Source: Pseudescherichia sp. (lineage in GTDB: Bacteria > Pseudomonadota > Gammaproteobacteria > Enterobacterales > Enterobacteriaceae). From it: a DNA stretch of 24,000 nucleotides. Location of the stretch: contig DAMBQR010000050.1 of the NCBI GenBank assembly GCA_032055545.1, forward strand, positions 4,726 through 28,725. The letters are read 5' to 3'. Within the stretch, counting starts at the first letter, position 1. Each line of letters begins with the position of its first letter. Shown in pieces: positions 4,390 through 24,000 of the stretch. The notes under the pieces are model-generated. The model was not told the DNA's origin. It was given only the letters and a program-made list of their open reading frames with translations, and made no database searches. The position numbers were made by a program, and so were the translations under genes.

Positions 4390-5436
4390 ATGTTTCCCGC
4401 ATTGCGCCACCTCGTTGTAGCTCTGGCGCTCGGTGTGTGCTTTTCCGTACCGGCGCAGGCAAAAGCCAGCCAGCCCGGCGCGATGGCCAGCGAGCAGGCC
4501 CGCCATATTGCCACCTACTTCCCGGGCCGCATGACCGGCACGCCTGCGGAGATGCTTTCAGCTGACTATCTGCGCCAGCAGTTTGCCCAGATGGGTTACC
4601 AGAGCGATATCCGCAAGTTCAACAGCCGCTACATCTACACCTCACGCAATAAGAGCCAGAACTGGCACAATGTGACCGGCAGCACGGTGATCGCTGCTCA
4701 TGAAGGCAAGCTGGCCCAGCAGATTGTTGTGATGGCACATCTCGATACCTATGCGCCGCGCAGCGATGCCGATAGCGATAACAACCTTGGTGGCCTGACG
4801 TTGCAGGGGATCGACGATAACGCCGCCGGGCTGGGGGTGATGCTGGAGCTGGCGGACCGGCTCAAGGATGTTCAGACCCAGTACAGCATTCGCTTTGTCG
4901 CCACCAGCGGTGAAGAGGAGGGACGGCTGGGGGCGGAAAATCTGTTGCAGCGCATGAGCGACGCCGAGAAGAAAAACACCTTGCTGGTGATCAATCTTGA
5001 TAACCTGATCGTTGGCGATAAGCTCTACTTCAACAGTGGAAAAAGCACGCCTGCTGCGGTGCGCAAGCTGACCCGGGATCGGGCCTTAGCCATCGCCCGC
5101 CAGCACGGTATTACTGCCACTACCAATCCAGGCCTGAACCCGGACTATCCGAAAGGCACCGACTGCTGCCACGATAGCGAAGTATTCGATCGGGCAGGTA
5201 TTCCGGTCCTCTCCATCGAGGCTACTAACTGGTCGCTGGGGAAAAAGGATGGCTACCAGCAGCGGGCAAAAACTAAGGCATTCCCCGACGGCACCAGCTG
5301 GCATAACGTGCGTCTGGATAACCAGCAGTTCCTCGACAGCGCCCTACCCGGCCGCATTGAGCGCCGCAGCCGCGACGTGATGCGTATTATGCTGCCGCTG
5401 ATGAAGGAGCTGGCGAAGGCGGAGAAGAACTCATAA
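4390..5436 (+). CDS. iap: alkaline phosphatase isozyme conversion aminopeptidase (M28 family), with signal peptide
   Basis: 348 aa: MFPALRHLVVALALGVCF...ARHIATYFPGRMTGTPAEMLSADY...GGLTLQGIDDNAAGLGVMLELA. Colinear with E. coli Iap and divergent from cysD as in K-12. Confidence 0.93.
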   Translation: MFPALRHLVVALALGVCFSVPAQAKASQPGAMASEQARHIATYFPGRMTGTPAEMLSADYLRQQFAQMGYQSDIRKFNSRYIYTSRNKSQNWHNVTGSTVIAAHEGKLAQQIVVMAHLDTYAPRSDADSDNNLGGLTLQGIDDNAAGLGVMLELADRLKDVQTQYSIRFVATSGEEEGRLGAENLLQRMSDAEKKNTLLVINLDNLIVGDKLYFNSGKSTPAAVRKLTRDRALAIARQHGITATTNPGLNPDYPKGTDCCHDSEVFDRAGIPVLSIEATNWSLGKKDGYQQRAKTKAFPDGTSWHNVRLDNQQFLDSALPGRIERRSRDVMRIMLPLMKELAKAEKNS

Positions 5437-7667: not shown

Positions 7668-8240
7668 TATCTCCACGCATGTGGAGAAAGCGTGGTGAAT
7701 CAGCAGCAGTATTATACCTTCTACGGTGTATCCCCACGTATGTGGGGAACACCCGCGAATCTGCGTTTTCCAGGCCTCGCCCTCCGGTTTATCCCCACGT
7801 ATGCGGGGAACACTAATCATTTGGCCCTAGAGCGATGACAGCGCACGGTTTATCCCCACGTATGTGGGGAACGCCTGATAAATTTCGGATTGAATCTGTT
7901 GTTCAGCGGTTTATCCCCACGCATGTGGGGAACGCGCATTTGAGGGATTCGCAGCTCGTTATCTAGTCGGTTTATCCCCACGCATGTGGGGAACGCAGTC
8001 TGGCCAGTGCTGGCGAAAGATGATGCCCCGGTTTATCCCCACGCATGTGGGGAACGCGGCTGAACAGCAGGCCGTAGTTGAGACGTGCACGGTTTATCCC
8101 CACGCATGTGGGGAACGCATCAAACGTTGCCGCACGGAATAAACCATAATCGGTTTATCCCCACGCATGTGGGGAACGCCACTCCTGCAAACGCCGGCGC
8201 ATGATCGCCGGCGGTTTATCCCCACGCATGTGGGGAACGC
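7663..8240 (-). CRISPR. type I-E CRISPR array 1 (10 repeats, 9 spacers of 32 bp), transcribed on the minus strand from the cas2-proximal leader
   Basis: 29-bp repeats start at 7663, 7724, 7785, 7846, 7907, 7968, 8029, 8090, 8151 and 8212, an exact 61-bp period. Plus-strand consensus is CGGTTTATCCCCACGCATGTGGGGAACGC. The oldest repeats (left end) are degenerate. Orientation is inferred from the GCGTTCCCC....GGGGATAAACCG sense form on the minus strand and from the AT-rich leader at the right end. Confidence 0.97.
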
Positions 8241-8324: not shown

Positions 8325-8621
<297 letters not shown>

Positions 8622-9539
8622 TTATGTGCTCCTGTGCCCAGCGTCGCCGAGGCTAGCAGGAAGAGGGATAGCGATAGGTTGAGCATCGGCGGGCGGCGGC
8701 GGTGGCGAAATGTCTCCTGCCGCTAATACCTCTTCGATTAGTGGGATCAGCCTGGCGAGAGTTTTTCCGCTGCGGAAAATATCCCGGCATGCCAGCCTCA
8801 CTTCACGATCGGGTTCAGTGGGATTATTTCTTACGATTTCAAAGGCTTTTGGTACAACGGTATCAAACTTGATGATATCGGCAATATCATAAACAAAGGA
8901 AAGTGGCTTACCGGTATGTACAAAACCAATGGCTGGCGCATAACCTGCCGCCAGCACAGCCGCCTCGGTAACACCATAAAGACATGCCGTTGCAGCACTA
9001 ATGCACTGATTAACTACATCACCCTTTTCCCAATCCTTAGGATCGTACCGGCGCCCATGCCACTTAACGCCATACTGCTTGGCTAATAAGGTGTATGTTG
9101 CGCGTACCCGACTTCCTTCAATGCCGCGTAACTGTTCAACTGAACGCCGTGCCGGAGGTGGTTCGCCAAAACGTAACTCAAACATTTTACGTACCACCTT
9201 CAGCCGCAGGTCTTCATCAAGCGCCAGCTTCGCCTGGTATAACAGATGATCGGAACGCGCTCCGCCCGGCTGCCCGGTGGCATACAGCCGGACGCCTGCC
9301 TCCCCAACCCAAACCAGCAGCGTACCTACCGTAGCCGCCAACCGCACCGCGGCGTGAGAAACTCTCGTACCTGGCTCGAGCATGATGCAGGCTACAGAAC
9401 CGACCGGGATATGCGTCCGAACGCCGGTTTTATCGATGAGCACAAACGCGCCGTCAATCACATCAATCTGACCATATTGCAAAAAAATCATTGAAACACG
9501 ATCTTTAAGTGGGATGGGGTTCAGAGGTATCCAGCTCAT
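8622..9539 (-). CDS. cas1: CRISPR-associated integrase Cas1 (I-E)
   Basis: 305 aa, the same length as E. coli Cas1e, with conserved blocks (..IFLQYGQIDVIDGAFVLIDKTG.., ..GFVHTGKPLSFVYDIADI..). Position is between cas6e and cas2. Confidence 0.96.
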   Translation of the reverse strand: MSWIPLNPIPLKDRVSMIFLQYGQIDVIDGAFVLIDKTGVRTHIPVGSVACIMLEPGTRVSHAAVRLAATVGTLLVWVGEAGVRLYATGQPGGARSDHLLYQAKLALDEDLRLKVVRKMFELRFGEPPPARRSVEQLRGIEGSRVRATYTLLAKQYGVKWHGRRYDPKDWEKGDVVNQCISAATACLYGVTEAAVLAAGYAPAIGFVHTGKPLSFVYDIADIIKFDTVVPKAFEIVRNNPTEPDREVRLACRDIFRSGKTLARLIPLIEEVLAAGDISPPPPPADAQPIAIPLPASLGDAGHRST

Positions 9540-10246
9540 TAACGCCGCCTTTTAACCATCAGCATGCCGCATCCCAGGGATTTACTTTTGCCGATACCAT
9601 TAAAGAGTGCCTGGGAAAAACGGCTGGGATCGGTGATCACCAGCGCTCCGGCATAGTCAACGCTGCTGTAGGCTATAGGATTTTCACCTTGCCTGCGCTG
9701 AAAACGATGCTGCTGATAGGCCAGCACGCTTACTCCTGCCGAGGCTGGCTCATCTGTACCATCCGGATCGGCCCATATGGCAAAATCATCGACCGCAGGC
9801 GCAACCAGACGAAAACCGTGCTGCTCGCCCTGCTTTTCCAGCCAGGACTGCGCCGCATCGACCTGTAATCCCCACCACTTTTCACTGGCAATATTCTCTG
9901 CTTTAGCCTGGAACTTGGCGTTCATTAATACATCCGAACGTTTTTTATCACGACAGACAACCGGGTTTGCGCGCAGCTGGAAATCAAGCTGCTGTCCCTT
10001 GTTCAAGGCCGGGGTAAAAGGTTTGGTCTCAATCGTAAACAGGTCGTGCTGTTGAACAGGCGCTGTCTGTGAAAGCATAAAAAAGCGCGCCTGCGGCTCC
10101 TGACGAAACAGAAAGTGGCGTTCGTCACAATCTGGAAAAAGCTGCCATAGCCATTGGTGACTGGCATAAGGTGCGGCATGCGTCCATTTTTGCAACATGC
10201 CCGGTTGCAGGCGATCGAGGTGAAGCTGTATGCGCGACAGGTACAT
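9539..10246 (-). CDS. cas6e: Cas6e (CasE/Cse3) pre-crRNA endoribonuclease
   Basis: 235 aa. It has an MYLSR.. N-terminus and a C-terminal GIG.SKSLGCGMLMV glycine-rich loop typical of CasE. The operon position is right, and there are 1-nt start/stop overlaps with cas5e and cas1. Confidence 0.9.
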   Translation of the reverse strand: MYLSRIQLHLDRLQPGMLQKWTHAAPYASHQWLWQLFPDCDERHFLFRQEPQARFFMLSQTAPVQQHDLFTIETKPFTPALNKGQQLDFQLRANPVVCRDKKRSDVLMNAKFQAKAENIASEKWWGLQVDAAQSWLEKQGEQHGFRLVAPAVDDFAIWADPDGTDEPASAGVSVLAYQQHRFQRRQGENPIAYSSVDYAGALVITDPSRFSQALFNGIGKSKSLGCGMLMVKRRR

Positions 10247-12061: not shown

Positions 12062-12652
12062 CTAGCGGGCTGAGAGATACTCATTCGCCCAGCGAATACG
12101 GTTACGGGAGAAGGGATCTATTGATTCTGGTTGGTGCTCTTCGCGCGCCTGCCATTCACGCATCCATAGAAAAATGCCGTCGGCCAACGAGAGAATATTG
12201 ACGCCGTCCTTGCCTCGAAGCCTGACGGCGCGGATGAGCTGCTGGCAGAAACTCTCCGGATCGGCAGCCTGTTGCAGGCGTTCAAACCGCAGGCGGGAGA
12301 GGTATAGCCGATCGTTTTTCTTCTGTCCGAGTTGAGCGGCAAAGCTGGGAAAAGAGACATTTTTTTCTACGTGTACAGCCACCGAGGCAAATACCGCCAG
12401 CGCCATTTGGTCTACAGGCTGGAGCGACATCTGTTGCTGAAGCTGACGCCGTAGCTCAGCATACCCTTCGCACATCATGACGCCATAAGGTGGCTCCATC
12501 CGACGTAGCTCAGCTCGCCAGGCGCGACCGTTGATTCGTTTTTCATCCTGCTTACTGTAGCGATCCGATAAAATAGTAAACCACTCGGTGAGCACCTTTT
12601 GCGCTGCGGGCTGGGTAAATATGCGCTCCTGTGCTGTGTTGCTGTTAAGCAT
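12062..12652 (-). CDS. cse2: Cse2 (CasB) Cascade small subunit
   Basis: 196-aa, alpha-helix-rich, basic ORF in the canonical position between cse1 and cas7e. It overlaps the cse1 stop by 8 bp. The call rests on position and composition rather than on sequence I recognise. Confidence 0.8.
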   Translation of the reverse strand: MLNSNTAQERIFTQPAAQKVLTEWFTILSDRYSKQDEKRINGRAWRAELRRMEPPYGVMMCEGYAELRRQLQQQMSLQPVDQMALAVFASVAVHVEKNVSFPSFAAQLGQKKNDRLYLSRLRFERLQQAADPESFCQQLIRAVRLRGKDGVNILSLADGIFLWMREWQAREEHQPESIDPFSRNRIRWANEYLSAR

Positions 12653-14204
12653 TCTGCTCCTCCGCCTCTTTCGCCAGATCCAAGAATTGCGTGCGTGTTT
12701 TTAACTTGTCGTAATCCCGGTCCAGCTTGCTTCTGGCGGTCAGCTGGCGTAGCAACGTGCCGTCGTCGCAGTCTGGATCGATAAACACCTCACGATCGAA
12801 AAAATTGATAACGTCATGATGCAGACGCTTTTCCCACTCCCTTAGCGCTTCTCGGGTAAGCAGATTTTCCCGTGCCGGATCGCTACTTAACGTTTCCAAC
12901 AGCTGACGAAACGCAGATTCGGTCTCCTGCCAGAAAGCAGTCTCAAGCAGGCTAAAATCGGCTTTTGCTTCGCTCGGTGTCGGGAACCATGCTGCCTTCA
13001 GCCACTGCTTTAAGAGGCGCAGCGAGTCGCTGGCAAGTGATAGCGTGTAGTACATAACGCTGCTCAACGCGTTATCATCAGGCGAGTTAACAAGGGGAAT
13101 ACGATGCTGATACCAGCAACGGGCTTTGGCGTTATCCATATCCCAGGCAAAGCACCACAGGCCCGTTGCGGGTAGCCGTCTGGGAAGTTTTTGCACGACC
13201 CTGGCAGGCTGAATGCGATTGAATTTATCTTCGCCCTCTAGCAACAGACCTAACCAGTCTTTATAGCTCAGGCCACCGGGCTGCCCTTTCAACGATAGCC
13301 AAGGTGCTGCTTGATCTTTTAACGCCTTTCGGTAAGGAGAGAGCGGATGCCGCCAGCCGTCATACTGCACGCCATAGTTTTTGGTACGCATTTCCCGTAG
13401 TAGCATCGGATGGTGCTCTCCACAGAGATCGCAGCTTCCTTCTACCGTTTTCTCGAAATCCAGTTCGATCCGTCGCGGCATTCCCCAATAAGCCTGCAAT
13501 ACATGCGCATTGTCTGGCGTTACGATGTTTCCAGCCTTCTCACTGGTTTTCGTTGGCGCAAGCCAGGGGAAAATAGCGGCATATTCGGACGGGATCGGGC
13601 GCTTCTCTTCCGGGATCACATTGAGCCAGAGCTTTTTCCACAGCGGGAAATCACGCTCCTGCTGGGGCACCACCAGCGTGGTTAAGGGGCCGCCGCCGCG
13701 TAGACCCACGCGATACCCTGCCCCACCTGCAGGCGAATTGGTTTGCACTGCAAAAAGCGCCATTACTGCACAATGAGGGCAGATCTGCTGTCCAACGTGG
13801 CGTTTTACGAAATGGTCTTTGTTGAGCTTCAGCGTATTGCCGCCGGGGGCATCAATTAACAGGCCAGCAATAGAGCTGTTTTCGCTCTCAAGCGACTCAA
13901 AGCTTTGCAGAAATGCAGGCTTTTCTGCACCGAACTGCATCGCTGGAGATATGGCCGAAAGTGCACTTTGCCACGCTTGTTGATCAATGCCGTTTTTCCA
14001 CACTTCCCGCCACTTCCGCTCATCTACGGGCGCGACGGTTGTTTGCAGTAATCCAATCAGCATCTGCCATGCAGCCCCCTGGAAATCGGCTCGGGGATAG
14101 CTGACATCGATGACGTTGTCATCCAGCAGGTTGGTGAGGGGGATTTTTGTTGTTTTTCCTGAATAACAAACAACAGGCAGCCAAGGTTCCGTAATTAAAT
14201 CCAT
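12645..14204 (-). CDS. cse1: Cse1 (CasA/Cas8e) Cascade large subunit
   Basis: 519 aa. The N-terminus MDLITEPWLPV is comparable to E. coli CasA (MNLLIDNWIPV). Internal ..G.GYR.GLRGGGPLTTLV.. is comparable to ..GFKSGLRGGTPVTTFV... It is the first gene after the cas3 gap and is preceded by AAGGAG. Confidence 0.93.
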   Translation of the reverse strand: MDLITEPWLPVVCYSGKTTKIPLTNLLDDNVIDVSYPRADFQGAAWQMLIGLLQTTVAPVDERKWREVWKNGIDQQAWQSALSAISPAMQFGAEKPAFLQSFESLESENSSIAGLLIDAPGGNTLKLNKDHFVKRHVGQQICPHCAVMALFAVQTNSPAGGAGYRVGLRGGGPLTTLVVPQQERDFPLWKKLWLNVIPEEKRPIPSEYAAIFPWLAPTKTSEKAGNIVTPDNAHVLQAYWGMPRRIELDFEKTVEGSCDLCGEHHPMLLREMRTKNYGVQYDGWRHPLSPYRKALKDQAAPWLSLKGQPGGLSYKDWLGLLLEGEDKFNRIQPARVVQKLPRRLPATGLWCFAWDMDNAKARCWYQHRIPLVNSPDDNALSSVMYYTLSLASDSLRLLKQWLKAAWFPTPSEAKADFSLLETAFWQETESAFRQLLETLSSDPARENLLTREALREWEKRLHHDVINFFDREVFIDPDCDDGTLLRQLTARSKLDRDYDKLKTRTQFLDLAKEAEEQNA

Positions 14205-14222
14205 TCCCTTTACTCCTTTAAG

Positions 14223-14244
14223 GCTGGCTCCGGGCGGAGCCAGC
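14223..14244 (-). other. perfect GC-rich hairpin between the sORF stop and the cse1 RBS
   Basis: GCTGGCTCC (14223-14231), loop GGGC, GGAGCCAGC (14236-14244). No U-run follows on the minus strand, so it is not a canonical terminator. It could be an attenuator, a processing site or an RNA-stability element. Confidence 0.5.
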
Positions 14245-14251
14245 AGAGGAT

Positions 14252-14332
14252 CTACGAGCGTCGTAACCAGAACATCAAGACGCCTACTAACATGAGCATC
14301 TCCTGATGGTTAAAGAGCATCGTGATTTGCAT
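14252..14332 (-). CDS. candidate 26-aa hydrophobic small ORF (MQITMLFNHQEMLMLVGVLMFWLRRS)
   Basis: ATG at 14330-14332 is preceded by AAGGAG (14345-14340) with a 7-nt spacer. The peptide has a hydrophobic core and an RRS tail. It lies inside the 79-aa track ORF, whose own start (TTG) lacks an RBS. No homology is known to me, so coding status is unproven. Confidence 0.35.
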   Translation of the reverse strand: MQITMLFNHQEMLMLVGVLMFWLRRS

Positions 14333-14462
14333 CGACGAACTCCTTTTATTGTCTGAAAGGAAGACGCCACTTAGAATGCAGTTGTCTAGGCCGCTCCAGT
14401 AATGACATCCGTCTCCTGAAGGCAGTGCCATTGCTGGGGCACTTTTAGCCTTAGTTGTCAAA

Positions 14463-14491
14463 AGCATAAACCTCAATAAATCCATGGTCAA
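14463..14491 (-). promoter_or_regulatory. candidate sigma70 promoter for the sORF / Cascade operon (Pcas-like)
   Basis: On the minus strand: TTGACC (14491-14486), a 17-nt spacer, then TATGCT (14468-14463), with an AT-rich UP-like tract just upstream. This is a sequence-pattern prediction only. Confidence 0.3.
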
Positions 14492-14500
14492 TAAAATAAC

Positions 14501-14523
14501 AAGTTAGTAAAGCCATATAACGT
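14501..14523 (+). promoter_or_regulatory. PAM-flanked partial protospacer matching the mini-array pseudo-spacer (candidate Cascade binding site)
   Basis: AAG|TTAGTAAAGCCATATAACGT compared with pseudo-spacer TTAGTAAGGCCGTATGAAAT. The AAG PAM is present, positions 1-7 are exact, and 15/20 positions match overall. The mismatches at 8, 12 and 16 are spacer-G versus A, which would be rG:dT wobble. Positions 12 and 18 are sixth-position bases. Confidence 0.45.
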
Positions 14524-14563
14524 TACTGTGATTGGTCGAGCTGCCAGGCTTTGTTATCATGAG

Positions 14564-14641
14564 TCATTCCCCGTATGCACGGGGATAAACCGTTAGTAAG
14601 GCCGTATGAAATTCGTTCCCCGCGTCAGCGGGGATTTCAAG
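14564..14641 (+). CRISPR. degenerate inverted mini-CRISPR: psiR-a, 20-nt pseudo-spacer, psiR-b (candidate crRNA-like regulatory RNA gene)
   Basis: psiR-a (14564-14592) is TCATTCCCCGTATGCACGGGGATAAACCG. psiR-b (14613-14641) is TCGTTCCCCGCGTCAGCGGGGATTTCAAG. Both keep a 6-bp stem and 4-nt loop hairpin. psiR-a keeps a perfect ATAAACCG handle. psiR-b has lost the handle and overlaps the cas3 stop codon (14637-14639). The sense orientation is on the plus strand, opposite to both arrays. Derivation from CRISPR repeats is clear; function is inferred. Confidence 0.65.
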
Positions 14642-17333
14642 GTTTAACCAATCCAAACCGCTTGCTGTAATACGCTGCTTCCCCCTGTTCAGAAACCAGT
14701 AATATCTGCGCTACTGGGCGGTGTAGCCGCTTACGGAACGCCTCCAGCAATTCTTCATTCGGCAGCGAGAAGCGGGACATGTTTTGCTTCCACCAGCTGG
14801 CTCGCACCTGTACGCGACTCATCTCCCAGCGAAAATCACCCTCTTTTACTACCGGCTGGAGCTGCCCATCGTCATCCAGCCAGGCAACGTAGACATCCAC
14901 GCTGGCCTCGCCCAGGCGAGTGGAAAATTCACGCCCCTCGTCCCAAAGAAAATCGCTGGCATCCTGGTGATAACCTTTATCGCGCTGCAACAAATTTTGC
15001 CTGGCGGCCGCGCGTTGGCTCAGCAGTGCGCCAAAGACGTTATCCTCAATGCCCTGCAATCCCGGCGGGGCAGGGATTTTTCCTTCGTATACGCCATCAA
15101 TTAACGTTCGCGCCATCTCTGGCATTTTGATTTCACCGTACTGACGCAGCAGTTTTTGCGTTCGCCACAGGCAGGCGTGATCGGTATAGACATAGCCCGT
15201 ACCGCGTAGCGTATCTCCCAGCCAGCCATCCTTAGCCTCTTCCTGCCATTCAGGAGCCAGGATATGCAGTACCGGAGAGCGACGCTCATCGGGCAGGTGT
15301 GATTTACAGACACCGTTTGCATCGCGAATATGTCGTTGCAATCGGCCTGCGCGCTGGATCAGGAGATCGACAGGCGCCAGATCGGAAATCATCCAGTCGA
15401 AATCAAGATCGAGACTCTGCTCCACAACCTGGGTTGCGATCAGTACCTTGCCGCGACGCTGCTCAGGCAAGGCATCTTTGCCAAACCAGGCCAGCGTGTT
15501 CTCTTCGATCGTCATACGATCGGCATAGGCAAAGCGGCTGTGGAATAGCAGGAGATTTTGCTGGGCTATCTTTCCTTCATTCAACAGACGCAGGAAAACC
15601 ATGAGCGCATCGTCAACGGTATTACGCACCCAGCAAATGCACTGCCCTGCTTCCACTACCTGGTAGATAATCTCCAACGCGCGATCGATGTCGTTTAGCC
15701 AGTTAACGGCAACGCAGCGCTTAACCTCCTGCCGCGTTTGTAACTGGTGCTCCTGCAATCCTGTAGATGAGAGATGGCTAAGCCATGGATAGCCAGCATC
15801 AAGGCTGGGATTTGCTGCGGCAAAACCAGCACCTTCAGCAAATGCAATCATCAGCTTCTCTTTAAGCGTTGCCGGAAGTGTGGCGGTTAACACTATGGCG
15901 CTTCCACCCTGTGCAGCATGAAACCACAGCAGCCCTTCCAGCAGCTTCACCATATATCCATCGTAGGCGTGCACCTCGTCGAGGATGAGAATCTTGTCAC
16001 GCAATCCGACCAGACGTAACGACTGGTGACGGAATGGCATAACCGCCATGAGTACCTGGTCCAGCGTGCCGACGCCGACTTCAGCCAGCAACGTGGTTTT
16101 ACGTGAATCAGCGAACCATGCATTGCACTCTGCGCTGGCGCTGGCATCGTCCTTGGCATAATGAGCTGTCTGGCTTTCATCCGTCTGCCAGACAGACTGG
16201 CGAAACGAAGTCGACATGTGCCTGGCACCGTGGGCCAGCACCAGCGAGGGACGCGCTGTATCAGAGAACAGTTTGCGGTACGCTTTTCCCAGCCGCTGAT
16301 ACATCGCGTTTGAGGTCGCCATCGTTGGCAGCCCAATATATAACCCTTTCCCCTTACCGGCTGACATTAGACGATGAGCGAGTATCATCGCCGCTTCTGT
16401 TTTACCTGCGCCAGTAACATCTTCTAGTACAATTAACTGAGGACCAGCAGATGAAATATCGAGATCGGCTGCACGCTGCTGGAGCGGCGTTAGCGAGTGA
16501 ATAAAGGGAAACAGCGTCTGATGCCCCTCGTAGCGACGAGTAACTGATGAAAGAGGAAGCGTGGACAGAGCTTTTTTGGCTTTATTGCAGGCGATTAACC
16601 AATATTTCTCAAGCGGCATGGGTTGGCTATTGAAGGAAAAGTGGTTTTCATCAGACCCAAGCCAATCCGCTAGCGTCATTACTCCCGCAAAAAACCAACT
16701 TTGCTGCTGTAATTTCTTAATCCACTCATCTTCTTGCCACTCTGCAGGAAGTGTATCAACTGAAAAAAGATCGCCTAATGCCGTTAAATATTGATTAGCC
16801 GAATGGATATCATCTTTTGTAAAAGCCGTGGCATAACGATGTTCTGGTTTATCCGGCGGAATACCGTGATGCCCTGTGCTTATTGCCATCCATATATCGA
16901 GAGCGTAAATGAATTCATCACGCTGGTCAGGTAGTATTTCAGAGAAGAGTCCACCTCGGCCTTCAAGCCAGTCAGTTTCGAGCTTATCCCAGAGCCAGAA
17001 GCCAAGCGAATCATGCCGTGCCGGAGTGTTGATACCTGCAGCAGGGCTAACCAGCGGAGAGTCTGGATGGGCGGCTAGCCGTTGAAAGCCGTTAGCAAAT
17101 TTACCCAGGTCATGGCTGGCAAAAAGGTAGCTTATCCAGCGATATCCAAAATCCGAGGCGAGTCCTAACTCTGCAAGCGCTTCGCGCATTCCAAAACGAT
17201 TTTCACTCGCCATAGTATACCCACATGCAGCAACGTCCAGGCAGTGGTAAACCAGTAGATGATAATTATCGCCGGTGGTTACTGTTTTTCTGGATTTGCC
17301 CCAATAACGGAGATAGCTTGCTTCAAAGCTCAT
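14637..17333 (-). CDS. cas3: Cas3 HD nuclease / SF2 helicase (I-E)
   Basis: 898 aa. It has an N-terminal HD domain (..HCLDVAA...HDLGKF..), helicase motifs (..TGAGKTEAA.., ..LILDEVHAYD..) and a C-terminal domain. Size is similar to E. coli Cas3 (888 aa). Confidence 0.97.
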   Translation of the reverse strand: MSFEASYLRYWGKSRKTVTTGDNYHLLVYHCLDVAACGYTMASENRFGMREALAELGLASDFGYRWISYLFASHDLGKFANGFQRLAAHPDSPLVSPAAGINTPARHDSLGFWLWDKLETDWLEGRGGLFSEILPDQRDEFIYALDIWMAISTGHHGIPPDKPEHRYATAFTKDDIHSANQYLTALGDLFSVDTLPAEWQEDEWIKKLQQQSWFFAGVMTLADWLGSDENHFSFNSQPMPLEKYWLIACNKAKKALSTLPLSSVTRRYEGHQTLFPFIHSLTPLQQRAADLDISSAGPQLIVLEDVTGAGKTEAAMILAHRLMSAGKGKGLYIGLPTMATSNAMYQRLGKAYRKLFSDTARPSLVLAHGARHMSTSFRQSVWQTDESQTAHYAKDDASASAECNAWFADSRKTTLLAEVGVGTLDQVLMAVMPFRHQSLRLVGLRDKILILDEVHAYDGYMVKLLEGLLWFHAAQGGSAIVLTATLPATLKEKLMIAFAEGAGFAAANPSLDAGYPWLSHLSSTGLQEHQLQTRQEVKRCVAVNWLNDIDRALEIIYQVVEAGQCICWVRNTVDDALMVFLRLLNEGKIAQQNLLLFHSRFAYADRMTIEENTLAWFGKDALPEQRRGKVLIATQVVEQSLDLDFDWMISDLAPVDLLIQRAGRLQRHIRDANGVCKSHLPDERRSPVLHILAPEWQEEAKDGWLGDTLRGTGYVYTDHACLWRTQKLLRQYGEIKMPEMARTLIDGVYEGKIPAPPGLQGIEDNVFGALLSQRAAARQNLLQRDKGYHQDASDFLWDEGREFSTRLGEASVDVYVAWLDDDGQLQPVVKEGDFRWEMSRVQVRASWWKQNMSRFSLPNEELLEAFRKRLHRPVAQILLVSEQGEAAYYSKRFGLVKP

Positions 17334-17593: not shown

Positions 17594-17842
17594 ATGATCC
17601 GAGGTAATATTAAGCGCTGGGGAAACTCTCCTGCGATCAGGATCCCAACAACGTTAATGCAGGCCCTTAATCTTAATATTGATGATGAAGTTAAGATCGA
17701 TTTGGTAGAAGGTAAGCTTGTCATCGAGCCAGTAAGGAGCGGATCTGAGTTTTCGCTTGCGGAACTGGTTGAAGAGATCACCGCCGATAACCAACATGAG
17801 CTGGTGGAATGGGGTAAACCTGAGGGTAAGGAAACCTGGTAA
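17594..17842 (+). CDS. mazE: MazE antitoxin (AbrB/SpoVT fold)
   Basis: 82 aa. ..[41 protein letters not shown]... is near-identical in blocks to E. coli MazE (..[41 protein letters not shown]..). Confidence 0.92.
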
Positions 17843-18175
17843 ATGATAAGTCAATTTGTACCCGATTCAGGGGATCTTATATGGGTTGATTTTGACCCAA
17901 CTAAAGGAAATGAACAAGCAGGACATCGTCCTGCCGTGGTGCTAAGTCCATTCATCTATAACAATAAAACGGGGCTTTGCCTTTGTGTTCCCTGTACCAC
18001 AAAGGCAAAAGGCTACCCTTTTGAAGTAGAATTCTCCGGTGAGCGTAACGCAGTAGCGCTTGCCGATCAGGTGAAATGCATCGCCTGGAAAGTCAGAAAC
18101 GCAGCGAAAAAAGGCAGAGTAACCGAGCAGGAACTCGACGTGATCAGAGCTAAGGTTAAAGCCTTAGTAGGGTAA
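17843..18175 (+). CDS. mazF: MazF mRNA interferase toxin
   Basis: 110 aa. ..YVPDSGDLIWVDFDPTKGNEQAGHRPAVVLSPFIYNNKTGLCLCVPCTT..KGYPFEV.. closely matches E. coli MazF. The ATG directly follows the mazE TAA. Confidence 0.95.
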   Translation: MISQFVPDSGDLIWVDFDPTKGNEQAGHRPAVVLSPFIYNNKTGLCLCVPCTTKAKGYPFEVEFSGERNAVALADQVKCIAWKVRNAAKKGRVTEQELDVIRAKVKALVG

Positions 18176-18247: not shown

Positions 18248-18691
18248 ATGAAAACGTTTAGCGTATCTACGACTCAGGCCAGGCCACCCCGTTTATGGCA
18301 GGTAGCTGGTTTAAACAATGCTGATGGTGTGGCATTGCTGGGTCAGATTAATGAAGGTTTGGATGGCAAGGTTGCTAGCCTGATCGTTGACTGGGCGAAG
18401 ATAACGCAAAACGACCTGCGTAAAATGTCAGGTATCCCATCAACCACATTCAGCCGCAGTTTGAAAGCGCGATTCAGTGCTGACCAAAGTGAACGGCTGG
18501 TGCGCATCATTCGTGTCCTTGATCGGGCAGTAGAGTTGTTTGAAGGCAATAAGGATGAAGCGCAAAAATGGTTGAATGAGCCTAACCGTGCGCTGGGCTG
18601 GAAAGTGCCGGCAGACCTGATGGCATCCGAAACCGGAGCTTATGAGGTTATGAAGCTGATCACTCGTCTGGAGCATGGGGTCTACTCTTGA
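18248..18691 (+). CDS. Xre-like / DUF2384-type antitoxin of a RES toxin
   Basis: 147-aa ORF whose stop overlaps the start of the RES gene (TTGA at 18688-18691). The C-terminal ..A..WL..PN.ALGG/W..P.DL... pattern is typical of the DUF2384 antitoxin domain. The call rests on motif plus gene pairing. Confidence 0.75.
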   Translation: MKTFSVSTTQARPPRLWQVAGLNNADGVALLGQINEGLDGKVASLIVDWAKITQNDLRKMSGIPSTTFSRSLKARFSADQSERLVRIIRVLDRAVELFEGNKDEAQKWLNEPNRALGWKVPADLMASETGAYEVMKLITRLEHGVYS

Positions 18692-19158
18692 TCCTCTATC
18701 GTCTTACAAAGACAAAGTATCTTTCTACATCCTGGACGGGGTATGGAGCGAAAGAGGCTGGAGGCCGCTGGAATAGCGTCGGCACATCGATGGTTTATGT
18801 ATCGGAAACGGCATCGTTAACCATGCTGGAAACGTTAGTGCACCTGCGGGCGGCACAGATTATGGATTATTTCACGCTGTTGAGTATTGATGTGCCTGAT
18901 GACCAGATTCAAAAGGCCAATATGGAAGAAGTACCTGATAACTGGGCTGATGAAGAGGCACCACCGGAGCTAGCCGCTTATGGTGACGCCTGGTGCTTCA
19001 CTAAGGCATCAATAGCTCTGCGTGTGCCCAGTGCCTTATCGCCAGTGGAATATAACTATCTGCTTAACCCTGAACACCCCGGTTTCTTCGAGCTGACACA
19101 AAAATCAAAAGCCATTCCGTTTCAATTCGACAGTCGGTTAAAACCCGATCGTAAGTAG
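18688..19158 (+). CDS. RES-domain toxin (NAD+-targeting family)
   Basis: 156 aa with a TTG start. ILYRL.K.KY......G.GA...GGRWNS.G...VY.SET.SL..LE.LVH is the canonical RES-domain N-terminal signature (Arg-Glu-Ser). Confidence 0.85.
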   Translation: MILYRLTKTKYLSTSWTGYGAKEAGGRWNSVGTSMVYVSETASLTMLETLVHLRAAQIMDYFTLLSIDVPDDQIQKANMEEVPDNWADEEAPPELAAYGDAWCFTKASIALRVPSALSPVEYNYLLNPEHPGFFELTQKSKAIPFQFDSRLKPDRK

Positions 19159-19554: not shown

Positions 19555-19590
19555 AGCTAAACGCGCCGCGTACAGGAGTCTGTCAGTACG

Positions 19591-21203
19591 CGGTTATCCC
19601 CGCTGACGCGGGGAACTCGTAGTAGCACCTTCCACCCCGATGCGGAAACGCGGTTTATCCCCGCTGGCACGGGGAACTCAATGCTGCCTGTCGCCGGGCC
19701 GGAATTGAAGACGGTTTATCTCCGCTGGCGCGGGGAACTCCCGGTTCGTATTTACTGATCGTGATCTCTACTCGGTTTATCCCCGCTGGCGCGGGGAACT
19801 CGGCTAGCGCGGATGTGAACGCGCTGAGCATTTCGGTTTATCCCCGCTGGCGTGGGGAACTCTTATCCCAGTCGCCACGGTAGCCGTAGTCGTCCGGTTT
19901 ATCCCCGCTGGCGCGGGGAACTCCCGATAATCCGGGTGATGGTTTTGAGCTGCGCCGGTTTATCCCCGCTGGCGCGGGGAACGCCAGAGTTTCCGGAAAC
20001 CATCCTGAACGCTGAACGGTTTATCCCCGCTGGCGCGGGGAACGCCAGCTGCTCATCGTCTATGTGATACGCGTACTCGGTTTATCCCCGCTGGCGCGGG
20101 GAACGCGTTACCGCCTGCGTCATCAAGCCTCATTTCTCCGGTTTATCCCCGCTGGCGCGGGGAACGCCGGAAATATTACCTGAACGGAAGCCACGCGGGC
20201 GGTTTATCCCCGCTGGCGCGGGGAACGCGTTTGCGCTGCCGTTACCTAATTTACCCTGGGCGGTTTATCCCCGCTGGCGCGGGGAACGCAGCGTCATCGG
20301 CAACACATTAAACAAAAAAGGCGGTTTATCCCCGCTGGCGCGGGGAACGCCCACAGCCAACCCCGCAACCATCCTCGCTCTGCGGTTTATCCCGCTGGCG
20401 CGGGGAACGCACAAAGACCATCTACTTCAGGCAGATAGTTTCCGGTTTATCCCCGCTGGCGCGGGGAACGCCAAATCGACAATGTGCAGCTTCGCTCCCT
20501 TGCCGGTTTATCCCCGCTGGCGCGGGGAACGCTGTTCCAGTTGATGCCGCTGGTACAACCGTTACGGTTTATCCCCGCTGGCGCGGGGAACGCTATCTAA
20601 CATTTTTTAGAACTGCAACATTTTTCGGTTTATCCCCGCTGGCGCGGGGAACGCGTGTTGGCTGGCATGTTGCGGTTGTAAATCACCGGTTTATCCCCGC
20701 TGGCGCGGGGAACGCAGTTTGAAAATAACCTCGTCTGCATCGCCGTCCGGTTTATCCCCGCTGGCGCGGGGAACGCGCAATTTCAAGATATCGCTCAATC
20801 TCTTTGAGCGGTTTATCCCCGCTGGCGCGGGGAACGCTACTGGATGCAGTTTAGCATCAGCATTAGTTTCGGTTTATCCCCGCTGGCGCGGGGAACGCTT
20901 GCAAAAAGGCTACCGAGGAAAACGGAACGGCGGTTTATCCCCGCTGGCGCGGGGAACGCGAAGGTGTCGTCAAGACTGGAAAACTCAAAGCCGGTTTATC
21001 CCCGCTGGCGCGGGGAACGCGTAGCCGCGCTGCTTTCGGGTTAATGAGTAACCGGTTTATCCCCGCTGGCGCGGGGAACGCACCCAGTTGGATGACGTCC
21101 TCTAACTCCTCTGCGGTTTATCCCCGCTGGCGCGGGGAACGCGCGTGGGCTGATTCAGCCTATGCAAAATGGCACGGTTTATCCCCGCTGGCGCGGGGAA
21201 CGC
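19591..21203 (-). CRISPR. type I-E CRISPR array 2 (27 repeats, 26 spacers of 32 bp), with its leader at the cysH-proximal (right) end
   Basis: Repeats start at 19591 (28 bp), then at 19651 plus 61n up to 20383 (28 bp), then at 20443 plus 61n up to 21175. Plus-strand consensus is CGGTTTATCCCCGCTGGCGCGGGGAACGC. The six oldest repeats end in ..AACTC. This is the classic E. coli-type I-E repeat. Confidence 0.98.
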
Positions 21204-21462: not shown

Positions 21463-22197
21463 TCACCCTTCGTGCAGCCCACATTCGCGCTTGAGGCCGA
21501 AGAAGCGGGTCTCTTCCTCCGCCATGCCCGGCTCCCATTTGCGGGTGGTGTGCGTATCGCCCACCGAGAGATAGCCTTGATCCCACAGCGGGTGGTACTT
21601 CAGCCCGTGCTTTTGCAGATACTGGTAAACAGTACGGTTGTCCCAGTCGATGATCGGCAGTACTTTAAACACGCCGCGCTGGACAGCCAGCACCGGCAGC
21701 GTCGCGCGGCTGCCTGACTGCTCCCGGCGCAGGCCAGCAAACCAGGTCTGCGCATTCAGATCTTTCAGGGCGCGGTTCATCGGCTCGACCTTGTTGATCT
21801 CATTGTACTTCTCAATACCCTCGACGCCCTGCTCCCACAGCTTGCCGTAGCGCGCTTCCTGCCACGCCGGGCTTTGCTCTGCGCGGTAGATCTTCAGGTT
21901 CAGCTTGAGCTTGTCCGCCAGCTCATCAATGAACTGGTAGGTCTCAGGAAACAGGTAGCCGGTATCGGTGAGGATCACCGGGATATCCGGGCTGATCTGG
22001 TTAACCAGGTGCAAGCTGACCGCCGCCTGGATACCAAAGCTTGAGGAGAGCACATACTCACCGGGCAGGTTCTCTAATGCCCAGACGACGCGCTCTTCCG
22101 CGCTCAGTTTTTCCAGCTGGCCGTTGGTCTCTGCCAATGCCAGAATGCGTTCGACTTTTGGCAGATCGTTTAAAGCAGTAAGATCGAGTCTGGACAT
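21463..22197 (-). CDS. cysH: phosphoadenosine phosphosulfate (PAPS) reductase
   Basis: The track ORF is 21463..22224. I trim the start to the ATG at 22195-22197 ([23 protein letters not shown]...), which gives 244 aa as in E. coli CysH. The C-terminal ..[16 protein letters not shown] is identical to E. coli. Confidence 0.97.
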
Positions 22198-22212
22198 ATA
22201 CCCCTCACTTCT

Positions 22213-22278
22213 GCCGGGCGGCACGACGTTTGCCCGGCCTACGGTTTTGTAGGCCCGGTAAGCGAAGCGCCACCGGGC
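22213..22278. repeat. pair of REP elements in opposite orientation (BIME-like) between cysI and cysH
   Basis: First element: GCCGGGC (22213-22219) pairs with GCCCGGC (22232-22238), followed by CTAC. Second element: GTAGGCCCGGTAAGCGAAGCGCCACCGGGC (22249-22278), with stem GCCCGGT/ACCGGGC. Confidence 0.6.
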
Positions 22279-22287
22279 ATGACTACG

Positions 22288-24000
22288 TTACTCCCAGAAA
22301 TCCCGCGCCGGATCCAGCACCGGACGGATAATCCCGGTACGAACGGTGAAGTCGCCGAAGCCTTCGTTTGCTTCACGCTCTTTCGACCAGCGGCCTACCA
22401 GCATGTCGATAGAGTCGAGGATCTCTGACTCGGTGATATTCTCACGATACATGCGCGGAATACGCGTGCCCATACGATTACCGCCAAGGTGCAGGTTATA
22501 GCGTCCCGGCGCTTTACCCACCAGACCCATCTCCGCCAGCAGCGCACGGCCACAGCCGTTCGGGCAGCCGGTCACGCGCATGACAATGTGGTCATCGCCC
22601 ACGCCGTGCTTCTCCATGATCGCTTCGACTTTATCAACAAAGCTCGGCAGGAAACGCTCCGCTTCCGCCATCGCCAGCGGACAGGTCGGGAAGGCGACGC
22701 AGGCCATGGAGTTCTCGCGCTGCGGTTTTACCGCATCCATCAGACCGTGGGAACGAGCCAGCGCTTCAATCTTCGCCTTCTGGCTCTCCGGCACGCCCGC
22801 GACGATCAGGTTCTGGTTCGCGGTCAGGCGGAAGTCGCCCTTGTGGATCTTCGCGATCTCCAGCAGACCGGTCTTCAGCGGACGATCCGGGTAATCGAGA
22901 ATACGCCCGTTTTCAATAAACAGCGTCAGGTGCCACTTATTATCAATGCCTTTCACCCAGCCAATGCGATCCCCGCGGCCGGTGAACTCGTACGGACGAA
23001 CCGGCTCGAACTTCATGCCTGCCCGGCGCTCAACTTCCGCTTTGAAGGTCTCAACGCCCACGCGCTCCAGCGTGTACTTAGTTTTGGCATTTTTACGATC
23101 GGTACGGTTGCCCCAGTCGCGCTGGGTGGTCACTACCGCTTCCGCCACCGCCAGAGTGTGCTCCAGCGGCAGGAAGCCAAATTCGCTCGCGGTACGGGCG
23201 TAGGTTTTCTTGTTACCGTGTTCGATTGAGAGGCCACCGCCCACCAGCAGGTTGAAACCGATCAGCTTGCCGTTCTCGGCGATGGCGATAAAGTTCATGT
23301 CGTTGGCGTGCAGATCAACGTCGTTCTGCGGCGGGATCACTACCGTGGTTTTGAACTTACGCGGCAGATAGGTCTGCCCGAGGATCGGCTCTTCATCGGT
23401 GGTTGCCACCTTCTCCGCGTCGTGCCAGATCTCAGCATAAGCGCGGGTGCGCGGCAGCAGGTGCTCAGAGAGCTTCTTCGCCCACTCGTAGGCCTCCGCG
23501 TGCAGCTCGGACTCAATCGGGTTAGAGGTGCAGAGCACGTTACGGTTCATGTCGTTGGCGGTCGCCAGTGCGTCCAGGCCCACTTCATGCAGCATCTGGT
23601 GAGCAGGCTTGACGTTCTTCTTCAGAATACCGTGATACTGGAAAGTCTGGCGGTTAGTCAGACGGATGCTGCCGTAGATGGTCTTCTCTTCGGCGAACTT
23701 GTCGATGGCCTGCCACTGCGCCGGAGTGATGATCCCGCCCGGCAGCCGGCAGCGCAGCATCATGGCGTGGCGTGGCTCCAGCTTCTGCTCGGCGCGTTCG
23801 GCACGAATATCACGGTCATCCTGCTGATACATACCGTGGAAGCGGATCAGCAGAAAGTTGTCACCTTTAAAACCGCCGGTAAGCCCCTCGTTCAGATCTT
23901 CAGCAATCGTACCGCGCAGGTAGTTGCTCTCACGTTTCATACGCTCGGCGTCGGTCAGTTTACCTTCGACCACCAGCGGACCTGGGTGTTTATCGCTCAT
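22288..24000 (-). CDS. cysI: sulfite reductase (NADPH) hemoprotein beta subunit
   Basis: 570 aa with the ATG exactly at the window edge (23998-24000). [35 protein letters not shown].. is colinear with E. coli CysI (570 aa). The siroheme/4Fe-4S Cys cluster (..CPNGCGRA..) is present. Confidence 0.97.

Follow-up and report, generated by a model that had tools for sequence, protein, structure and literature searches.

A probable Cascade guide-RNA gene, with an adjoining small open reading frame, between cas3 and cse1 of a Pseudescherichia type I-E CRISPR locus

Results

An inverted mini-array occupies the gap between cas3 and cse1

We analysed 24,000 nucleotides of DNA from Pseudescherichia sp. 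[quoted passage not shown] The element of interest lies in the 432-bp gap between cas3 (14637-17333) and cse1/casA (12645-14204), the first Cascade gene. The order after cse1 is cse2, cas7, cas5, cas6e (9539-10246), cas1 and cas2 (8325-8618), and the Cascade and Cas6e genes are intact. Within the gap is a mini-array of two repeat-like units around a short pseudo-spacer. It reads on the plus strand, opposite to the two minus-strand CRISPR arrays and the minus-strand cas operon, and so is inverted relative to its surroundings.

The first repeat-like unit, psiR-a (TCATTCCCCGTATGCACGGGGATAAACCG, 14564-14592, plus strand), has a hairpin (CCCCGT-ATGC-ACGGGG) and a perfect 5' handle (ATAAACCG). It is followed by the 20-nt pseudo-spacer psiS (TTAGTAAGGCCGTATGAAAT, 14593-14612) and then by the second unit, psiR-b (TCGTTCCCCGCGTCAGCGGGGATTTCAAG, 14613-14641), whose hairpin is intact, whose 3' flank is degenerate, and within which the cas3 stop codon falls (14637-14639). 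On the same strand at 14501-14523 is a partial match to psiS, the target, in which an AAG protospacer-adjacent motif (PAM, 14501-14503) precedes the 20-nt protospacer TTAGTAAAGCCATATAACGT. Aligned with the target, psiS is identical at 15/20 positions and differs at 8, 12, 16, 18 and 19. The sequence formed by the PAM, the seed and four further nucleotides occurs at only two sites in the window, the target and psiS, and when both of its strands were scanned for sequences within 7 substitutions of the repeat, only the two arrays, psiR-a and psiR-b came up.

These features had been described in an earlier note made from the sequence alone, and its coordinates and sequences for psiR-a, psiS, psiR-b and the target are exact to the base. 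Rechecking likewise reproduced the inversion it had reported, the AAG PAM and the degree of identity, the spacer-G versus protospacer-A character of mismatches 8, 12 and 16, and the overlap of psiR-b with the cas3 stop codon. The hairpins that it had drawn in psiR-a and psiR-b, with the perfect psiR-a 5' handle, also stand, as folding 14560-14660 to minimum free energy yields both hairpins (z = -3.35). If Cas6e cuts at the 3' base of the repeat stem, its known cleavage position, the predicted mature product of the mini-array would be a 49-nt CRISPR RNA (crRNA)-like molecule (14585-14633, plus strand) composed of an 8-nt handle, a 20-nt guide and a 21-nt hairpin handle.

Pseudo-spacer and target covary among related loci

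For comparison we used 80 species-level loci gathered via Cse1, together with several metagenomic or genomic loci found via exact proteins; individual loci are given below by handles such as L003. An inverted repeat-like pair was present upstream of cse1 in ~20 of the type I-E loci fetched, among them loci of the Enterobacterales Erwinia, Mixta, Pluralibacter, Tenebrionibacter, Brenneria, Pectobacterium, Atlantibacter, Salmonella and Citrobacter, and also of Gilliamella and Methylococcales. As in the window, the cse1-proximal unit is the one that keeps the 5' handle. In 19 loci the psiR-a hairpin was paired in 97% of cells, and double-sided changes numbered 23, compared with 6.6 ± 3.0 in shuffled alignments and much lower values in slid controls. 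A core of psiR-b, CCCCGCGTCAGCGGGG, is shared by seven loci (the window, L003, L005, L013, L038, L069 and L084).

The relation between pseudo-spacer and target was scored at AAG-flanked sites over positions 1-15 without positions 6 and 12, that is, over 13 read positions. In 21 of 23 loci psiS matched a same-strand site of this kind at 10 or more of the 13 positions, and in eleven the match was complete (13/13). When spacers were swapped among loci as non-cognate controls, only 12 of 504 spacer/gap comparisons reached 10/13 and none reached 12. The pair in the window scores 12/13, a level seen in 0/504 of the swapped comparisons, which bears out the earlier claim that the match exceeds chance. 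The targets lie 41-120 nt 5' of the mini-array. Mismatches gather at position 6 (13 of 21 loci) and at position 12. Positions 6 and 12 are the bases that are flipped out, and not read, by Cascade; this distribution thus argues for selection for Cascade binding and against a leftover duplication.

L003, with a Cse1 91% identical to that of the window, is the closest relative having the gap. The end of cas3, psiR-b, and the leader, small open reading frame and hairpin described below are 87-100% identical between the two, psiR-b being 100% identical, whereas a 180-bp core (14431-14612) containing psiS, psiR-a, the target and both predicted promoters is only 25-65% identical. Even so, the L003 pseudo-spacer (CTTATGCTTTTAAG...) matches its own AAG-flanked target (CTTATGCTTTTAAA) over 13 consecutive nucleotides, and both are wholly unlike those of the window. 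Spacer, target and promoters have evidently been exchanged together, and this difference points to cassette replacement of the core and not to stepwise compensatory drift. Such exchange may be a means of escape from phage RNAs that mimic CreR, the guide RNA of comparable systems; a search of viral contigs with the handle plus psiS for such a phage mimic returned no match. In L001, L002 and L004, whose Cse1 proteins are 87-88% identical to that of the window, the cas3-cse1 spacer is just 18 bp (L001 5982-6001, L002 1089-1108, L004 9982-10001), so the ~410-bp module appears to be gained or lost in one piece. Neither the window gap nor the Salmonella module had a BLAST match in 5,426 E. coli genomes, and gap DNA and the small peptide described below had no match in plasmids.

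The expectation that the unit would recur in relatives with pseudo-spacer and target covarying therefore holds, both in the 21 of 23 loci and in L003, where the two have been replaced and still match. Less of the proposal that a 20-nt pseudo-spacer fits the 6-nt register of Cascade survives: across the family psiS is 15, 19-22, 25 or 32-35 nt long, giving loose support to the register, and we dropped strict 6-nt periodicity. We also considered a second target within the small open reading frame (~14290, minus strand), where the second-best psiS seed match, 6 nt long and on the cse1 strand, is preceded by ATG, a permissive I-E PAM. This arrangement is found in the window and L003 and not in the other loci, and is probably due to chance.

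The target lies between two divergent predicted promoters

An extended -10 element read from the sequence (TGTTATCAT, 14552-14560, plus strand) ends 3 nt ahead of psiR-a and is the predicted mini-array promoter; transcription from it would start at ~14566-14568, in the first bases of psiR-a. A -10-like hexamer ending 3-10 nt ahead of psiR-a was found in 20 of 20 loci, with a TGn extension in 13 of them, and the mini-array thus appears to have its own promoter. The earlier note had pointed instead to a TATAAC box inside the target. We rejected that assignment, because the conserved extended -10 is nearer to psiR-a and fits better.

In the other direction, a promoter scan placed a promoter-like site facing the small open reading frame and cse1 at 14463-14491 on the minus strand (-35 TTGACC, 14491-14486; 17-nt spacer; -10 TATGCT, 14468-14463). 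Its -35 element starts 9 bp from the target PAM, so the protospacer covers the UP-element zone (~-48 to -67) of this predicted promoter. In most related loci, and also in Citrobacter rodentium, the best promoter-like site has a PAM-to--35 distance of 8-11 bp. The position of the target beside a minus-strand promoter, another suggestion of the earlier note, agrees with this predicted promoter-like site, whose spacing is conserved across loci, and the target is sandwiched between this site and the divergent predicted promoter of the mini-array.

A small hydrophobic open reading frame precedes cse1

Downstream of the minus-strand promoter-like site is a predicted structured leader of ~124 nt (14333-14456, minus strand), which includes a motif conserved in relatives (AACTGCATTCTAA, 14371-14383) and the Shine-Dalgarno sequence (AAAAGGAG, 14340-14347) of a small open reading frame (ORF) encoding a hydrophobic peptide of 26 amino acids (MQITMLFNHQEMLMLVGVLMFWLRRS, 14252-14332, minus strand). 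Between the stop codon of the small ORF and the cse1 Shine-Dalgarno sequence lies a hairpin (GCTGGCTCC-GCCC-GGAGCCAGC, 14223-14244, minus strand) that shows compensatory changes across 10 loci. In a single-sequence minimum-free-energy fold of the leader (262 nt in all, z = -2.66), codons 5-7 of the small ORF are paired to its Shine-Dalgarno region (14333-14347), a predicted pairing reminiscent of the occluded state of type I toxin mRNAs.

Homologues of the small ORF, fixed in length and preserved in frame, are present in 12 loci. Their hosts include Salmonella enterica, Enterobacter, Erwinia, Mixta, Scandinavium, Pluralibacter and Tenebrionibacter, and they lie between the guide-RNA target and cse1; the Salmonella enterica type that carries the small ORF belongs to a Cse1 cluster of 1,168 members. 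Entropy summed by codon position (30.2/13.7/31.8) shows the second position to be far more conserved, which is evidently the pattern of a translated hydrophobic peptide and marks the small ORF as a real gene. The hydrophobic pattern and a dibasic C-terminus are kept across genera, residue 24 being Arg (CGA or AGG) or, in three loci, Lys. The distance from the stop codon to the cse1 ATG is constant at 41-48 nt. Since this leaves no room for a further promoter, cse1 must be transcribed from an upstream promoter through the small ORF.

A full mini-array with its cognate target accompanies 10 of the 12 small ORFs, the other two being accompanied only by repeat remnants, and in those two the ORF lacks its ATG or its Shine-Dalgarno sequence. 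Among the loci compared, the small ORF was never found where repeat-like units were wholly absent. In Rosenbergiella (L012, ~-160 to -126 relative to cse1) a single inverted repeat-like unit abuts the small-ORF ATG and there is no Shine-Dalgarno sequence, and in Mixta theicola (L011, ~-190 to -100) one repeat-like remnant stands with a small ORF that has no ATG; these two may be decaying modules.

Database searches did not connect the region to annotated families. An exact look-up of nine peptides, including the 26-residue peptide of the window, found none of them in a collection of 15 billion proteins, and Pfam and NCBIfam gave no match at E-values up to 10 for six small peptides that again included it. 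Rfam gave no match to 14100-14750 at E-values up to 10. A gapped pattern (leader motif, Shine-Dalgarno sequence and cse1 start) run against metagenome contigs was too loose, and the 120 loci that it returned were random, none with the small ORF.

Other small ORFs fill the same position in Citrobacter/Klebsiella, Brenneria/Pectobacterium and Methylococcales. The three Brenneria/Pectobacterium loci (L026, L032 and L054) have a 53-codon ORF followed by a hairpin between target and cse1, and the three Methylococcales loci (L072, L076 and L082) have there a 36-residue peptide with a hydrophobic tail, followed in L076 and L082 by hicB/hicA. A Gilliamella locus (L036) has a 52-codon ORF between mini-array target and cse1. 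In L018, which lacks the 26-codon ORF, the stretch between the target and cse1 holds GGGCAATAT repeated five times in tandem (-107 to -50 relative to cse1).

Setting of the locus

The system is flanked by iap (4390-5436) and by cysH/cysI (21463-24000), the usual enterobacterial position, and the nearest named Cse1 relative is from a Pseudescherichia metagenome-assembled genome (88% identity). A repeat scan gave two minus-strand arrays, at 7724-8238 and 19590-21201, whose repeat hairpins differ (CCCCACATGCGTGGGG in the first and CCCCGCGCCAGCGGGG in the second). The loop of psiR-a (ATGC) is like that of the repeat of the 7724-8238 array, and psiR-b is like the repeat of the other. In the 19590-21201 array one repeat, near 20382-20408, has lost 1 nt, and there are degenerate units at 19590-19738. 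Two toxin-antitoxin pairs lie on the plus strand between cas3 and this array, mazE/mazF (17594-18175) and xre/RES (18248-19158); an xre/RES pair is also found upstream of cas3 in L001.

Discussion

A probable guide-RNA gene that would control the Cascade operon

We consider it likely that the mini-array is a functional guide-RNA gene of the CreA/CreR type that represses the promoter of the small ORF and cse1. The earlier note had proposed a CreA/CreR-like, Cascade-guided module, and the covariation of pseudo-spacer and target in 21 of 23 loci and the conserved PAM-to--35 spacing support that reading. The steps of the mechanism that we propose are all inferred from sequence. The extended -10 promoter would transcribe psiR-a, psiS and psiR-b, antisense into the end of cas3, and Cas6e would cut at the base of both hairpins to yield the 49-nt RNA, with its 5' handle, guide and 3' hairpin. 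Loaded into Cascade, this RNA would pair with the minus strand at 14504-14523 through positions 1-7, 9-11, 13-15, 17 and 20. With so short a guide and only a partial match, Cascade would bind but would not license Cas3: by analogy with published work on CreA and CreR, the R-loop would not be completed and Cas3 would not be recruited. Cascade bound over the UP-element zone would sterically block RNA polymerase at a promoter from which a single transcript would run through the structured leader, the small ORF, the hairpin and cse1 to cas2. The outcome would be negative feedback on Cascade synthesis, which would respond to free Cascade and, through it, to crRNA load and to anti-CRISPRs, and the small ORF would be expressed when Cascade fails. 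Because the mini-array promoter is 8 bp past the PAM-distal end of the target, it may be co-repressed by the bound Cascade.

Several points weigh against this reading, at least in its strongest form. The psiS/target pair of the window is among the weaker in the family: position 8 of the seed carries a G-versus-A mismatch, which is unusual among the mini-arrays, and position 16 is mismatched too. With the seed mismatch at 8, repression in the window may be modest, or it may be weak or decaying. The module is dispensable, judging by the three closest relatives without it (L001, L002 and L004), and both promoters are consensus-level predictions.

Two other explanations would deny the mini-array this role or make its match incidental. 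The two units might be a non-functional relic, left by decay either of a tandem duplication or of the end of an old inverted array, in which the likeness of psiS and target is a leftover. The sequence ATAACAAG ahead of the target is faintly like the ATAAACCG handle, the five mismatches of the window pair include one in the seed, and the closest relatives lack the module, all of which would suit decay. A relic would not be expected, however, to keep the psiR-a hairpin by compensatory change, an AAG-flanked match in 21 of 23 loci with mismatches concentrated at 6 and 12, a fixed distance to the -35 box and a -10 element ahead of psiR-a, nor to have had spacer and target replaced together as in L003. 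Comparison with relatives thus strongly disfavours decay by either route, and we regard it as extremely improbable; the duplication, which the earlier note had raised as an outcome that would overturn its proposal, is at odds with the covariation and with the placing of the mismatches. Alternatively, the hairpins read on the minus strand might terminate or stabilise the 3' end of the cas3 mRNA, with the match at 14501-14523 incidental. Such a function could coexist with the guide RNA, and it would suit the overlap of psiR-b with the cas3 stop codon and the fact that psiR-b is the most conserved part of the module (identical in L003). Against it, there is no T-run after the hairpin on the minus strand, a terminator scan of it gave no result, the mini-array is also present where cas3 is divergent and ends elsewhere (Salmonella L084, Citrobacter L023), and covariation of spacer and target is left unexplained. 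We therefore think this account very unlikely.

Relation to described systems

The CreA/CreR class has already been published for type I-E systems, and the window is a further instance of it. According to a computational survey (Shmakov et al. 2023, bioRxiv 10.1101/2023.03.03.530964; NAR), ~19% of bacterial I-E loci carry mini-arrays, and these share with the window a long cas3-cas8 gap, transcription opposite to cas3, a better conserved upstream repeat, an AAG PAM, mismatches at sixth positions and a target in the cas8 promoter region, which in the window is a predicted one. CreR of Salmonella enterica ATCC 51960 represses PcasA 8.6-fold via E. coli Cascade, and this repression is relieved by excess crRNA or AcrIE8 (Liu et al. 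2023, bioRxiv 10.1101/2023.03.10.532045). As in the window, the Salmonella unit is a degenerate mini-CRISPR beside casA in which the psiR1 5' handle and the psiR2 hairpin are kept, and an AAG PAM and partial complementarity adjoin the casA promoter, a predicted one in the window; the function proposed for it, Cascade autorepression sensing crRNA load and anti-CRISPRs, is the one that we propose here. The two differ in that the Salmonella match runs for 15 consecutive nucleotides whereas that of the window is interrupted, and in that the Salmonella target is ~140 bp upstream of casA with no ORF between (as in L023), whereas the window target is ~300 bp upstream of cse1 and is separated from it by the leader, the small ORF and the hairpin. 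Small ORFs are not mentioned in either study, and in a 2026 preprint the same groups continue to regard I-E CreR as having no toxin.

The closest likeness is to C. rodentium, in which a 495-bp cas3-casA gap encodes a translated toxin of 96 bp, CreT, that is repressed by Cascade with an opposite-strand CreA directed to a site overlapping the UP element (Basta et al. 2025, Nat Microbiol, PMC12055562). In our comparison this locus (L206) has the same layout as the window: an inverted mini-array, a PAM-flanked partial match over the UP element, a leader, a small ORF and casA. Its match (ATG followed by GTGGTTAAAGAGAA) consists of five paired positions, a mismatch, five paired positions, a mismatch and two paired positions, thus skipping 6 and 12 as well, and its PAM is 8 bp from TTGAAC-17-TATTAT, giving a PAM-to--35 distance of 8-9 bp in the two loci. 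The PAM is ATG in C. rodentium and AAG in the window, and psiS is 33 nt and 20 nt, respectively. The toxin, MQEESTRFKCLFLRMMVRLGKKLSISFQLSLH, at -151 to -53 relative to casA, is a basic peptide of 32 amino acids, whereas the window ORF encodes an unrelated hydrophobic peptide of 26; toxicity and Cascade dependence have been demonstrated for the former, and the latter is a candidate. C. rodentium CreT was reported to have no homology to any annotated sequence (Basta et al. 2025, PMC12055562). We found clear homologues of this 32-residue peptide in Klebsiella spallanzanii (L038, -161 to -62 relative to the cse1 ATG) and Atlantibacter (L064, -156 to -57).

More distant systems share parts of the arrangement. 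In the archaeal type I-B CreTA of Haloarcula hispanica (Li et al. 2021; Liu et al. 2023) a crRNA-like antitoxin likewise guides Cascade to a site between two divergent promoters, in a ~300-bp gap inside the cas operon, and both the toxin and the cas operon are repressed. There, however, CreT is an RNA that sequesters a rare tRNA-Arg, and the promoters diverging from the target are those of the toxin and cas8, whereas in the window the diverging promoter is that of the guide-RNA gene itself. We rejected a CreT of this tRNA-sequestering type for the window ORF, which has 26 codons, a conserved peptide pattern and no tandem pair of rare codons. In the type I-F CrePA of Acinetobacter (Shu et al. 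2024, bioRxiv 10.1101/2024.01.05.574328) a protein toxin is repressed at the level of transcription by the effector with a CreA RNA and freed on inhibition of the effector; that system differs from the window in its CRISPR type and in its toxin, which is larger, phage-derived and blocks cell division. What is new here, and of modest novelty, is the unannotated family of 26-codon ORFs and the cassette-like replacement of the regulatory core.

Autoregulation alone or a guarded toxin

If the mini-array does repress the cse1 promoter, the role of the small ORF can be read in two ways. The validated toxin of C. rodentium in the same slot gives about an even chance that the 26-residue peptide is itself a Cascade-repressed toxin, the module then being a CreTA addiction module. 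Besides this positional analogy, the presence of diverse small ORFs in the slot and the degeneration of the ORF where the mini-array is degenerate would favour a toxin. On the other side, the small ORF appears to be co-transcribed with cse1, so that normal induction of Cascade would also make the peptide, and no homology links the peptide to the validated toxin. Its best 13-residue hydrophobicity window is 2.1, and classic small membrane toxins reach ~3 by that measure, making the peptide the less hydrophobic. That it founds a new toxin family under repression by Cascade we hold to be somewhat short of an even bet.

Pure autoregulation is the alternative, and we judge it possible, with a probability a little below one half. 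Here the RNA-guided Cascade would repress the cse1 operon and the small ORF would encode a leader peptide or a benign small membrane protein; that translation of the ORF and the downstream hairpin tune cse1 read-through or translation is a tentative part of this explanation, of similar standing. The constant 41-48 nt between the end of the ORF and the cse1 ATG, together with the covarying GC-rich hairpin before the cse1 Shine-Dalgarno sequence, is attenuator-like, and the ORF and cse1 must share one promoter. Validated CreR of the Salmonella type has no ORF in the slot, as in L023 (psiS starting TAG, target ~140 bp upstream), which makes autoregulation sufficient as a function in its own right, and the authors of the Salmonella work hold I-E CreR to be toxin-less. 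The hairpin, however, has no proper U-tract in most loci, and a hydrophobic pattern and dibasic C-terminus maintained across genera are untypical of attenuation leaders. The proven translated toxin of C. rodentium at the same position, and the other small ORFs or hicBA toxin-antitoxin genes found there in other clades, also tell against a purely regulatory ORF.

Annotators should treat the 432-bp cas3-cse1 gap neither as array debris nor as an empty spacer. It appears to be the control region of the whole Cascade operon, in which a probable guide-RNA gene, its operator, two divergent predicted promoters and a small coding gene missed by gene callers are packed together, and the window adds a well-supported instance to the CRISPR self-regulation and addiction modules described between 2021 and 2025. 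If the small ORF does encode a toxin, many I-E loci now regarded as carrying stand-alone CreR would be CreTA addiction modules with a hidden toxin, the slot between target and cse1 would be a swap-in position for diverse small toxins, and CRISPR-guarding toxins would extend to Salmonella enterica and to several plant- and insect-associated Enterobacterales.

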